From Waddlia chondrophila WSU 86-1044 (GTDB lineage Bacteria; Chlamydiota; Chlamydiia; Chlamydiales; CAMCWV01): a DNA stretch of 64,000 bases. Made by a program: the position numbers and the translations under genes. Below the pieces are notes generated by a model, which worked only from the letters and a program-made list of their open reading frames with translations, was not told where the DNA came from and made no database searches. Below, one piece after another: positions 16,059-18,891 of this stretch; the first letter of the stretch is position 1; every line of letters starts with the position of its first letter. The stretch spans positions 5,076 to 69,075 of the forward strand of contig CAMCWV010000006.1 in NCBI GenBank assembly GCA_945882915.1, read 5' to 3'.

Positions 16059-16427
16059 ATGGGCCAAACGAAAAACAGCACAGAGTTTAAACCCAGCCGT
16101 AGGTTGGGGCAAATACAACTCTGGCAGCCTGAAAGGCTGCTATATCATTCTTTGGAAAGAGGGTTAGATAAGCATACGAATGGACTGGCTAGACAGTATC
16201 TGCCTAAGCATCAACGACTTGACAATATAACCAATGAGGTAATAGTAGAAATCGAACATTTGCTTAACAACCGACCTAAAAAAGTGTTACAATATCGTAC
16301 ACCCTTAGAGGTCTTTAACGAGTATAAATCGAAGTCTTCACTTGTCGCAATGAGACGAAGGAAGGTTGGATGGAATGATGATTATGCGATCAAGTTACTC
16401 GGGATGGTAGGCAGTGACAAGGCATAA
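16059..16427 (+). pseudogene. IS30-family transposase, 3' fragment only
   Basis: ...YHSLERGLDKHTNGLARQYLPKHQRLDNITNEVIVEIEHLLNNRPKKVLQYRTPLEVFNE matches the C-terminal end of IS30 transposases (SWERG.NEN.NGL.RQY.PK...LN.RPRK.LGY.TP.EVF). No N-terminal or DDE region is present. Related end fragments occur at 25912 and 54824. Confidence 0.75.
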
Positions 16428-18630
16428 AGTCTTTTTAGAGAAAAACCCCTGGATCGTCAGGCATTATCGCGCCTTGTTAAGAAGCCTGAGGCCTAAGCTG
16501 AAAAAAGGTGACAAGGAATTGATACGGCTGGCATTTGAAATGGCGGCAGATGCACATAAAACCATGCGCCGCAAAAGTGGTGAGCCTTATATTCTACACC
16601 CGATTGCCGTAGCCATGATCTGTGTAGAAGAGATTGGCCTTGGCGTAAGAAGTACCATCTGCGCTTTATTACATGATATCGTTGAAGACACCGACATCTC
16701 TTTAGAAGATGTTGAAAGAGAATTTGGCTCTGAAATATCCAAGATAGTTAATGGGTTGACCAAGATATCCAACGTTATGGATACCAATACCAGTCAGCAG
16801 GCAGAGAATTTTAAAAAGATATTACTTACCCTTACCGATGATCCAAGGGTCATTCTGATAAAACTGGCCGACCGCCTGCACAATATGCGTACGCTCGACC
16901 ACATGAAGAGTGAGAAGCAGCTTAAGGTCTCATCTGAAACTGTTTGGGTATATGCACCATTGGCCCACCGTATGGGGTTGTACACTATTAAAACGGAACT
17001 GGAAGACCTTTCCATGAAATATATGGAACCGGACGCTTACAGGGAAATTGCTAAAAAACTGTCAGAAACCACGAGAGAGAGAACCCGCTATATTAATGAA
17101 TTTGCACGCCCTTTAAAAGAAAAATTAGTGGCCGGCAGTTTTAATTTTGAGATCTGTAGCCGGCCAAAAAGCATTCACTCAATCTGGAATAAGATAAAAA
17201 AGAAAGGTGTGGCATTTGAAGAGGTCTATGACCTGTTTGCCATCCGTGTAATACTGGATTCTACTCTCGAAAAAGAAAAAGAAGATTGCTGGAAAGTGTA
17301 TTCCATAATCACTGACGAATACACCCCTTCCCCCAAACGTTTGAGAGATTGGCTCAGCAATCCCAAAAATAACGGATACGAAGCCTTACACACAACCGTA
17401 ATGGGCCCGCAGGGCAAATGGATAGAAGTACAAATACGCACGAAACGGATGAATGAAATCGCAGAGAAAGGATTGGCTGCTCATTACAAATACAAAGAAG
17501 GAAGTAATAATAAAGACCGTTTTGATAAATGGTTCGAGCAGATCCGCGAAGTACTAAGTACGCAGGATACAGATGGGGTTGATTTTTTACAGGATTTTAA
17601 AACCTCATTCCTCGCTGAAGAGATCTATGTATATACCCCCAAAGGTGAAGTAAAAATGCTGCCTACCGGCAGCACCGCTCTGGACTTTGCATTCTCCATT
17701 CACTCGGCTATCGGAACCAAATGCATCGGCGCCAAAGTGCATCATAAACTGGTGCCTATCAGTCATAAACTTCGCAGCGCCGACCAGGTAGAAATCATCA
17801 CCAGTAACAAACAAAAGCCTTCAGAAGGCTGGCTAAGCATAGCGGTTACTGCCAAAGCAAAAAGCGAGATAAAAGAGGCATTGCGCGAAGAGAAAAGAAA
17901 AACAGCCGAAGACGGCAAATATACTCTTCAACGCAAAATAGAAGCCATAGGGGCCTCATACAACCAACACACTATTGAAGAACTGGTTCAGTTTTACAAA
18001 TTGCCCTCACCGCTGGATCTCTATTTTAGGATAGCTACCAAAGCGATTGACCTGAAAGAGTTAAAAGATTTCAAGGTATTGGGTGACAGGATCGAAATTC
18101 CCAAACACAAACCAGTTATTACAGAAATTCCGGTTGATCATACTCACCAGAAAAATGATAACCACAAAGATTCTGAGTTAATTATTTTTGGCGAAAGCAG
18201 CGACAGGATTATGTACTCCCTGGCCAGGTGTTGCAACCCCATTCCCGGGGATGATGTATTTGGTTTTGTAAGCACAGGCAATGGTTTAATCATTCACAGA
18301 ACCGCTTGTCCGAATGCCACGCAATTATTAGCCAATTATGGCCATAGGGTAGTGAAAACGAAATGGGCCAAGAATAAAGAAATATCTTTCCTCACAGGCT
18401 TGAAAATTATGGGATTGGATGATGTGGGCGTAATAAACAAAATTACCAACGTGATCAGCGGCGATCTGCGGATCAATATCGCAGGCTTAACCATCGAATC
18501 AAGGGAAGGCTTATTTGAAGGAACCATCAAAGTGTTTGTACACGATAAGGAAGAACTAGAAGAACTGGTTACCCGGTTAAAATCATTGAACGGAATACAA
18601 ACAGTTGATCGTTTTGACACAGAAAACTAA
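16414..18630 (+). CDS. bifunctional (p)ppGpp synthetase/hydrolase, RelA/SpoT homologue (long RSH)
   Basis: 738 aa. The HD hydrolase domain has GEPYILHPIAVA and LLHDIVEDTD. The synthetase domain has RPKSIHSIWNKIKKKGVAFEEVYDLFAIRVIL and YEALHTTV. TGS (YVYTPKGEV) and C-terminal ACT-like regions are present, so all domains are intact. The sequence style (SIWNK..KK) recalls Bacteroidetes RSH proteins. AT content is visibly higher than in neighbouring genes. Confidence 0.9.
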   Translation: MTRHKVFLEKNPWIVRHYRALLRSLRPKLKKGDKELIRLAFEMAADAHKTMRRKSGEPYILHPIAVAMICVEEIGLGVRSTICALLHDIVEDTDISLEDVEREFGSEISKIVNGLTKISNVMDTNTSQQAENFKKILLTLTDDPRVILIKLADRLHNMRTLDHMKSEKQLKVSSETVWVYAPLAHRMGLYTIKTELEDLSMKYMEPDAYREIAKKLSETTRERTRYINEFARPLKEKLVAGSFNFEICSRPKSIHSIWNKIKKKGVAFEEVYDLFAIRVILDSTLEKEKEDCWKVYSIITDEYTPSPKRLRDWLSNPKNNGYEALHTTVMGPQGKWIEVQIRTKRMNEIAEKGLAAHYKYKEGSNNKDRFDKWFEQIREVLSTQDTDGVDFLQDFKTSFLAEEIYVYTPKGEVKMLPTGSTALDFAFSIHSAIGTKCIGAKVHHKLVPISHKLRSADQVEIITSNKQKPSEGWLSIAVTAKAKSEIKEALREEKRKTAEDGKYTLQRKIEAIGASYNQHTIEELVQFYKLPSPLDLYFRIATKAIDLKELKDFKVLGDRIEIPKHKPVITEIPVDHTHQKNDNHKDSELIIFGESSDRIMYSLARCCNPIPGDDVFGFVSTGNGLIIHRTACPNATQLLANYGHRVVKTKWAKNKEISFLTGLKIMGLDDVGVINKITNVISGDLRINIAGLTIESREGLFEGTIKVFVHDKEELEELVTRLKSLNGIQTVDRFDTEN

Positions 18631-18822
18631 CAATGGTTTGGCGTACGTCCTGTACGTCCTTAAAAAGTTATGGCAACACCTTGGCATGAGGGCCAATCAT
18701 GTCGTGGCGGTTTGGTAACGTTTCCGAATGAGCTGCGCCAAGTCGGGAGGCTTCCCTTCAAACCAGTGTAACGGGAACTCCCAGAAGTTAAGTCTCAATC
18801 TAAAACATGTCTCCCAGATTGA

Positions 18823-18891
18823 GCAATTCGCGTTGAGACTATACTGTCAACAGGTTGGAGCAGGTCCAAGATCTAGGCAATAGATTTTTTT
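18823..18891. mobile_element. solo terminal fragment of an IS (same IS as the mini-element at 59789-60003)
   Basis: CCCAGATTGAGCAATTCGCGTTGAGACTATACTGTCAACAGGTTGGAGCAGGTCCAAGATCTAGGCAATAGATTTTTTT is close to the reverse complement of 59930-60003. Confidence 0.7.

Follow-up and report, generated by a model that had tools for sequence, protein, structure and literature searches.

A long RelA/SpoT homologue of probable Chitinophagaceae origin in a chlamydial chromosome, and whether it is likely to work there

How does a chlamydia come to carry a complete gene for a stringent-response enzyme, and does it use it? The question is raised by a 64,000-nt stretch of contig CAMCWV010000006.1 (assembly GCA_945882915.1, forward strand, positions 5,076-69,075; hereafter the window, in whose own numbering all further coordinates are given), which encodes a long RelA/SpoT homologue (RSH) between kdsA and a gene for an HU-family DNA-binding protein. 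An earlier note on this DNA had drawn attention to the gene on the premise that the stringent response is missing from the best-known members of the phylum, and published surveys and reviews deny RSH to the Chlamydiae as a whole: a 2011 RSH census found none in 15 chlamydial genomes, and a 2025 review describes Planctomycetes-Verrucomicrobia-Chlamydiae (PVC) bacteria as lacking long RSH. No report of a chlamydial RSH was found in the literature searched. For some Planctomycetes and Verrucomicrobia, the statement that PVC bacteria lack RSH is probably outdated. The best overall explanation of the locus, which we hold to be probable without pressing it further, is that a captured Chitinophagaceae Rel is expressed in the chlamydia and works there as it does in its donors. 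If a working stringent-response enzyme has indeed been captured, no long RSH would have been reported from Chlamydiota before it.

The gene occupies 16414-18630 on the plus strand and reads without interruption through 738 codons, from a GTG start to a stop codon at 18628-18630. Five Pfam domains, all exceeding their thresholds, follow one another along the protein: HD_4 (PF13328, residues 40-189, E = 3.8e-41), RelA_SpoT (PF04607, residues 249-364, E = 2e-37) and, in the C-terminal regulatory region, TGS (PF02824, residues 404-463), RelA_AH_RIS (PF19296, residues 475-633) and ACT_4 (PF13291, residues 658-733). The match to TIGR00691 (spoT_relA) reaches 613 bits with a cut-off of 499. The protein thus has the architecture of a long RSH, an HD hydrolase followed by a synthetase, with TGS, RIS/zinc-finger and ACT/RRM regions behind them, and the intact long gene that the earlier note had placed between kdsA and HU is present, as are the motifs that it quoted. 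In the hydrolase the catalytic motifs are RKSGEPYILHP (53-63), HD (87-88), ED (91-92) and ADRLHNMRT (152-160); they are the same as in the donors, align with those of the solved structures 8fr8 and 6yxa, and leave the metal-binding and catalytic residues H62, H87-D88, E91-D92 and D154/N158 intact. In the synthetase they are RPK (250-252), YDLFAIRV (272-279), RLRD (309-312), YEALHTTV (322-329) and EVQIRT (338-343), with D273, Y322, H325, E339 and Q341 kept, and a CC..H..C (CCHC zinc-finger) motif lies at 604-634. A check of the catalytic residues, mutation of which would have told against the earlier note, found all hydrolase and synthetase motifs kept, with one change, G249S, altering the glycine of GRPK.

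Matches to solved structures run over nearly the full length of the protein (8fr8, 436 bits; 6yxa, 421 bits; 5iqr, 383 bits), and the alignment with the full-length chain 8fr8_I extends to residue 733. We take 6yxa to be Rel of Bacillus subtilis, 5iqr and 5kps to be Escherichia coli RelA on the ribosome, and 1vj7 to be the N-terminal domain of Rel from Streptococcus equisimilis. These matches to solved Rel structures settle the predicted fold. Moreover, because its scores with the RelA and SpoT equivalog models are far under their cut-offs, its HD domain is intact and its RLRD is the RxKD-type charge motif of bifunctional Rel, the protein is classed as a single bifunctional-type Rel that belongs to neither the proteobacterial RelA nor the SpoT subfamily. 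The protein itself is an ordinary Rel, and what is new is the lineage that hosts it.

As to its origin, the protein is 86-91% identical over residues 9-738 to RSH proteins of Sediminibacterium-like Chitinophagaceae. In a collection of 15 billion proteins, its best 120 matches are 85-91% identical, and the organisms named among them are Sediminibacterium, Hydrobacter, Asinibacterium, Chitinophaga, Chitinophagaceae, Sphingobacteriia and Bacteroidota, with no others; its best 80 genome loci are nearly all of Chitinophagaceae type by label. When 81 sequences are joined in a neighbour-joining tree, RSH of the window falls at least five nodes inside the Chitinophagaceae in 100 of 100 bootstraps, within a ten-member Sediminibacterium-like clade whose branching leaves the exact sister unresolved. 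In the donors, the surroundings of the gene are conserved as well: of their 80 loci, 41-67 have an ABC transporter upstream of it and purA downstream of it. The host backbone, on the other hand, is recognisably chlamydial. On the minus strand at 15073-15999, kdsA, the gene for 3-deoxy-8-phosphooctulonate synthase (NF003543, 391 bits), bounds the insertion zone on the left; its product is just 66-71% identical to its nearest relatives, those with names being Parachlamydiaceae, Chlamydiales or Waddliaceae, and the gene is evidently a native part of the chlamydial backbone with host-like codon usage. Since RSH is up to 91% identical to its donors, while kdsA is only ~70% identical to its chlamydial relatives, a foreign origin is indicated, and it is almost certain that a Chitinophagaceae RSH was integrated into a chlamydial chromosome by horizontal transfer.

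The gene order beside kdsA fits an insertion at this place. Three chlamydial relatives (L085-L087) have the order folK-kdsA-lptA/C-like-lptB-ndk and no RSH nearby, although they are distant (~70% identity in kdsA) and synteny beyond kdsA is not kept. The window retains ndk-lptB-lptA-kdsA, and folK (HPPK) does not adjoin kdsA: it lies directly upstream of kdsA or overlaps it in the three relatives, and is absent from 15999-16060 in the window. Compared with these relatives, the synteny break falls exactly where the window has a remnant of an IS30-family insertion sequence (IS) followed by RSH.

Composition tells a similar story, less through base content than through codons. The earlier note had described a low-GC islet from hand counts, and the dip that it saw is real: at a scale of 2217 bp, no other stretch of the window has so low a guanine-plus-cytosine (GC) content as that of RSH, non-overlapping windows being as low in just 0.03% of cases, and the minimum of 41.0% lies at 17044-19260. 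However, the hand counts were off and made the contrast too large. The true values are 42.5% for RSH, 50.6% for kdsA, 50.9% for the open reading frame (ORF) starting at 19716 and 45.1% for glgP, with a window mean of 45.5%; AT-rich spacers together with codon positions 1 and 2 account for the dip, and GC content of RSH at third codon positions (GC3) is 0.453, which is within the host range of 0.37-0.53 and equal to that of the nearest donor. With a dip of ~3 points and a host-typical GC3, GC content was dropped as the chief sign of foreignness, and a codon likelihood test was used instead. This test takes a per-codon log-likelihood ratio between a host set (35 window ORFs) and a donor set (19 ORFs flanking RSH in donor loci L005-L007). 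The window RSH scores -0.094 per codon, inside the range of the donor RSH genes (-0.066 to -0.126) and close to the donor neighbour genes (-0.118 +/- 0.032), whereas the 35 host ORFs score +0.126 +/- 0.039, the lowest of them +0.020. It thus lies ~5.6 standard deviations (SD) off the host mean, unlike all 35 other large ORFs of the window. Identity to Chitinophagaceae, nested position in the tree and donor-like codons together bear out the earlier proposal that a Bacteroidetes-type RSH was acquired.

The same evidence bears on whether the gene might instead be an old native one of this chlamydial family, its likeness to Bacteroidota being due to transfer in the reverse direction or to conservation. 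Environmental chlamydiae have been poorly surveyed for RSH, and the published zero comes from 15 genomes. Nevertheless, vertical inheritance has next to no probability in view of where the gene sits, deep within Chitinophagaceae diversity with conserved synteny there in 41-67 of 80 donor loci, of its 91% identity to donors, set against the mere ~70% that host kdsA shares with any relative, of codon usage 5.6 SD off the host mean, and of folK, not RSH, adjoining kdsA in chlamydial relatives.

A second doubt concerns the contig itself. The source is evidently metagenome-derived, and Chitinophagaceae are common in like samples to judge from the titles of donor records, so that reads from a mixed freshwater metagenome could have been misjoined into a chlamydial contig. 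We consider such a chimera or contamination highly improbable. The order kdsA, IS30 remnant, RSH and HU recurs in four further assemblies from other samples (ERZ28613056, GCA_947446165.1, ERZ27280192 and ERZ27280191; L001-L004), with 99.9% identity across both junctions, and the same junctions in four independent assemblies argue against a chimera and for physical continuity of RSH with the host chromosome. In addition, none of the Chitinophagaceae sequences among the 15 billion proteins exceeds 91% identity to the window RSH, hence no contaminant genome matches it; its 90% cluster consists solely of two start-codon variants of this very gene. Finally, the foreign DNA consists of precisely one coding sequence, truncated at its 5' end, fused to a new start and free of donor flanks.

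The limits of that foreign part can be drawn closely. Nucleotide alignment by blastn gives 83.6% identity to donor loci L005 and L006 across 16452-18630, and local alignment widens the homology to 16438 on the left and to 18639-18645 on the right. The Chitinophagaceae-homologous segment on the plus strand is accordingly 16438-18645, that is, the RSH coding sequence minus ~22 N-terminal codons, plus ~10-15 nt past the stop codon. None of the donor neighbour genes is found in the chlamydial RSH loci and no donor flanking DNA in the window; co-transferred neighbours or flanks were rejected, homology ending at 16438 and at about 18645. To the left of the segment, 16414-16437 on the plus strand forms the new 5' end of the ORF, a GTG and 8 codons without donor homology, with an in-frame TAG at 16408. 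The donor proteins begin MEQAPE..VLPKYNLNPEQEKNEIIRHYRALL in the alignment (the first ~22 residues of the family being MEQAPE...PKYNLNPEQ), and the window protein begins (V/M)TRHKVFLEKNPWIVRHYRALL, with ~22 native codons gone and residues 1-8 new. The description of the gene as full-length thus stands for its five intact domains and fails for its N terminus.

Besides the GTG, two other in-frame starts are available, TTG at 16474 and ATG at 16540, and public gene calls disagree between 738 and 696 residues. Solved Rel N-terminal domains align from about residue 19-30 of the window protein, so a start at GTG 16414 or TTG 16474 keeps the whole HD domain; the ATG at 16540, which corresponds to the 696-residue call, would drop about 24 aligned residues.

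When and by what route the gene arrived can be approached from the same data. RSH codon usage is still donor-like, with no shift to that of the host, from which we infer a transfer that was recent relative to the turnover of synonymous sites. Synonymous divergence (dS) between the window RSH and the nearest sampled donors is ~1.2 and, given a recent transfer by codon usage, would mostly reflect an unsampled donor lineage. The earlier note had imagined a co-resident amoeba symbiont as the donor. This is not borne out: the closest relatives, which by their record names stem from metagenomes of freshwater and streams, are free-living Chitinophagaceae and carry RSH in a conserved chromosomal neighbourhood. 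DNA uptake from bacteria eaten by a protist host would be a reasonable route.

The proposed course of events begins with a single Rel gene that would have moved from Sediminibacterium-like Chitinophagaceae into the chromosome of an environmental chlamydia and landed at a repeat-rich, rearranged spot beside kdsA, where the coding sequence alone survived. Its first ~22 codons would have been lost at the junction beside the IS30 remnant, and a new in-frame GTG start recruited. Rel enzymes are activated for synthesis of the alarmone (p)ppGpp by ribosomes and uncharged tRNA, and the TGS/RIS/ACT region of the captured protein would, by analogy with its family and if the gene is expressed, dock on stalled ribosomes with uncharged tRNA. 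The synthetase domain would then produce (p)ppGpp from ATP and GTP/GDP, and the Mn-dependent HD domain would break it down again, so that the chlamydia would gain an alarmone signal from which its phylum is reportedly excluded. Speculatively, the targets in the chlamydial cell might be conserved GTPases or DksA, which chlamydiae are reported to retain.

Is the enzyme, then, at work? We put the chance that RSH is active and used in its chlamydial host somewhat above even. In its favour, the frame is unbroken, the solved structures that it matches best are ribosome-binding Rel/RelA proteins, 320 of the 327 columns that are invariant in 80 donors (98%) are unchanged in the window protein, and the ratio of non-synonymous to synonymous divergence (dN/dS) is low, ~0.05 in pairwise comparison with the nearest donors and ~0.07 on the window's own branch. 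Several observations weigh on the other side. The low dN/dS is due in large part to time spent in the donor lineage, and amino-acid change on the window branch is about 3-4 times that on the sister branch (0.044 versus 0.014). At invariant sites, the window protein has seven private changes (T89I, G249S, V337I, E367K, G456A, D488E and N520T), compared with at most three in any other of the 81 sequences. Among them, G249S changes the GRPK motif of the synthetase at a position that is Gly in all 80 donors, and also in the three Rel/RelA chains aligned residue by residue (8fr8, 6yxa and 5iqr). An open frame is not in itself decisive either: in a simulation of neutral point mutation, the probability of remaining stop-free fell from 0.41 with 17 non-synonymous changes to 0.02 with 73. 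Lastly, the native 5' end of the gene, with its native promoter and start, is evidently lost; a sequence scan found no Shine-Dalgarno sequence at either candidate start, and promoter-like sites upstream of RSH are at the level of chance (8, with 6.3 +/- 2.7 expected). A scan for terminators at RSH likewise found nothing above chance.

Such observations are what one would expect if the transfer were real and the gene a recent passenger, silent or useless in the chlamydia and too young to have decayed. The missing codon shift implies a short time since transfer, the lost 5' end leaves the gene without evident signals for expression, private substitutions (G249S among them) are in surplus, dN on its branch is raised, and the gene lies amid decayed mobile-element debris; with as few as 17 changes after the transfer, a neutral frame would not improbably (P 0.41) still be intact. 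Yet RSH is identical in all five assemblies and apparently fixed in the sampled population, an in-frame start lies right at the junction, and, along with 98% of the donor-invariant positions, all catalytic motifs are retained. Had the ~50-73 non-synonymous changes in excess come mostly after the transfer, a stop-free frame would have a probability of only 0.08-0.02, before indels are counted. An intact frame taken as proof of selection was accordingly set aside, the simulation making it weak to moderate evidence; it is weak evidence because residence in the host has been short. Single-nucleotide polymorphisms (SNPs) in the population were also considered as a gauge of selection in the new host and proved uninformative, the five assemblies being near-clonal with no SNP within RSH. 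On balance, we regard a useless passenger as possible and rather doubtful, and an expressed, working Rel as the better account.

It might also be that the captured protein is active in an altered role and not as a classical starvation sensor: its main task might be hydrolysis of (p)ppGpp, or it might even serve as a secreted effector. G249S, which adjoins the catalytic RPK in the synthetase, and the untouched hydrolase motifs would suit the first version, and the new sequence of residues 1-8 the second. Chlamydial type III secretion signals are N-terminal. However, without another synthetase in the cell there would be nothing to hydrolyse, the remaining synthetase motifs (D273, Y322, H325, E339 and RLRD) are intact, and secretion is speculation, so that an altered role appears quite improbable. 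Returning to the captured Rel working as in its donors, the fullest version of that account, in which an obligate intracellular chlamydia was re-equipped with a working stringent-response enzyme by capture of a single gene of a free-living bacterium, perhaps one preyed on by its protist host, stands in our estimate at about evens.

What would follow is of some general interest. A complete Rel in a chlamydia would be an exception, and a datable one, to the published rule of RSH-less Chlamydiae, and it would imply that the enzyme of a global regulator can pass between phyla as a bare coding sequence. It would also offer a test case: does such a Rel dock on the chlamydial ribosome, and what does (p)ppGpp do in a lineage reported to be without it? 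If the gene works, it would amount to a natural test of whether such a cell can accommodate (p)ppGpp, for instance of whether the conserved "orphan" DksA of chlamydiae responds to it. If RSH is inactive, the locus would still be a clean and well-bounded case of very recent gene flow from Bacteroidota to Chlamydiota in freshwater communities.

The surroundings of the gene consist largely of debris. Upstream, the earlier note had recognized the 3' end of an IS30 transposase, and rightly: ORF 16059-16427 matches the last 47 positions (221-267 of 267) of the NF033563 IS30 transposase model (E = 3e-11) at 43.5 bits, below the cut-off of 80, as befits a fragment. The whole remnant, on the plus strand at 16059-16390, comprises the transposase 3' end and a short 5' piece, and appears to belong to a resident, degraded family of mini-IS30 elements. 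It has partial matches to 25759-25787 and 25915-25978, which belong to a second, more degraded IS30 remnant at ~25758-26010 with a piece of a repeat resembling miniature inverted-repeat transposable elements (MITE-like) inside it; the two remnants share AAACGAAAAACAGCACAGAGTTTA as a 5' motif, and also a 3' coding end that reads ..YRTP(L/M)EVFNE. No terminal inverted repeats were found at the remnant beside RSH, and of the DDE transposase that goes with an IS30 element only those 47 model positions are there. The upstream piece is a remnant and not an IS, apparently of a decayed family resident in the genome. That IS30 came with RSH from the donor has no support: the donor loci have no IS30 beside the gene, and the window contains another degraded copy elsewhere.

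Downstream, on the plus strand at 18813-18891, lies what had been taken for the solo end of a second IS. The stretch does share the end of an element at 59789-60003, to which it is 91% identical over 79 bp in inverted orientation (60003-59925); that element, however, is short and MITE-like, with no transposase attached. The solo end starts with a ~19-bp terminal inverted repeat, CCCAGATTGAGCA(A/G)TT(C/T)GC, and its inverted-repeat tip faces RSH. The element at 59789-60003 is 215 bp long and non-coding; its terminal inverted repeats (CCCAGATTGAGCAGTTTGC) are imperfect and span ~19 bp, and the partial copy at 18813-18891 is its one other copy in the window.

Next comes the HU gene (19104-19379, plus strand; PF00216, E = 1.5e-30), which had been thought perhaps to belong to the same islet. 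It is not from the RSH donor: the donor flanks do not contain it, and among named proteins those nearest to it are proteobacterial, being HU (HU-beta) proteins of Burkholderiales or Gammaproteobacteria with 57-66% identity, so a joint transfer with RSH was rejected. No chlamydial or Chitinophagaceae name occurs among its best 120 matches. Its GC3 of 0.25 is far under that of host genes, and its codon score, +0.03, stands at the edge of what host ORFs show; HU may be another foreign gene, acquired independently of RSH, though a 91-residue protein gives a weak signal.

Beyond HU, the ORF at 19716-20603 (plus strand, 295 residues) has no Pfam or NCBIfam match and a host-like codon score of +0.154; of the few SNPs that separate the five assemblies it holds the majority (19909, 20004, 20094 and 20476), and its 3' end enters the MITE-like repeat of which the second IS30 remnant has a piece. 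More than 25 copies of this palindromic ~165-bp repeat, complete or partial, lie in the window, among them the reference copy at 20567-20730 and others at 38744-38914, 58506-58669, 38027-38191, 12891-12988, 25797-25894 and 56801-56873, and they give rise to spurious short ORFs with "...VAENGNLDGAKA..." peptides. In the related assembly L001, the structure diverges from that of the window precisely at 20730, which suggests that rearrangement occurs at these repeats.

Over its whole length, the window by profile matches encodes a Snf2 helicase, MreB, GTP-dependent PEPCK, LptB, an LptA-like protein, KdsA, SucB and LpxK, as well as two Ser/Thr kinases, GlgP, DnaJ, Lon, XerC and RNase Z. The two kinase genes (8913-10463 and 10682-12295, plus strand) are adjacent paralogues of the eukaryote-like Pkinase type between pckA and ndk, and are also found in related assemblies. 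On the minus strand, the SucB-like E2 subunit of a 2-oxoacid dehydrogenase (21061-22443) has a linker with short tandem peptide repeats (QKKFET repeated; VKSVEVKS), and 34583-36649 is a fused pyruvate dehydrogenase E1 alpha-beta gene, one ORF of 688 residues matching both subunits. Three tRNA-Gly genes (two GCC, one CCC) form a cluster on the minus strand at 508-873, unrelated to the RSH locus; these are the sole tRNA genes of the window, and tRNA-linked integration of RSH was ruled out on that ground.

How the locus compares with known systems depends on which of its parts is considered. From members of the IS30 family, the element upstream of RSH differs in that it shares only the C-terminal 47 positions of the transposase model and has neither a DDE core nor identified inverted repeats, with no evidence that it moved RSH. 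With the RelA/SpoT pair of E. coli, the window RSH shares superfamily and domain order, and the models of both types match it; the scores are nevertheless well short of membership, 496 bits for the SpoT-type NF008303 (cut-off 947) and 421 bits for the RelA-type NF008124 (cut-off 728), and compared with E. coli RelA its HD motifs are intact and its charge motif is of RxKD rather than ExDD type. The solved Rel and RelA proteins (8fr8, 6yxa and 5iqr) have the catalytic motifs, the TGS domain and the zinc-finger/ACT region in common with it, and differ in the Gly of GRPK, which is Ser here. Closest of all is the Rel of Chitinophagaceae (Sediminibacterium, Hydrobacter and Asinibacterium, and the metagenome-assembled genomes GFS_4189 and GFS_13257), with the same five domains, YEALHTTV, RLRD and codon usage; relative to it, the window RSH is without the first ~22 residues, has 8 new ones and seven private changes including G249S, and sits in a chlamydial chromosome outside the ABC-transporter/purA neighbourhood. 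For the keeping of alarmone enzymes by intracellular bacteria, the precedent is Rickettsia, whose spoT paralogues are mostly short. Rickettsia bellii has ten paralogous spoT genes, and the authors of a study of them argue that the stringent response is still important in Rickettsia. There the genes come in multiple copies, whereas the chlamydial window holds one complete long RSH with an identifiable and apparently recent origin in another phylum.

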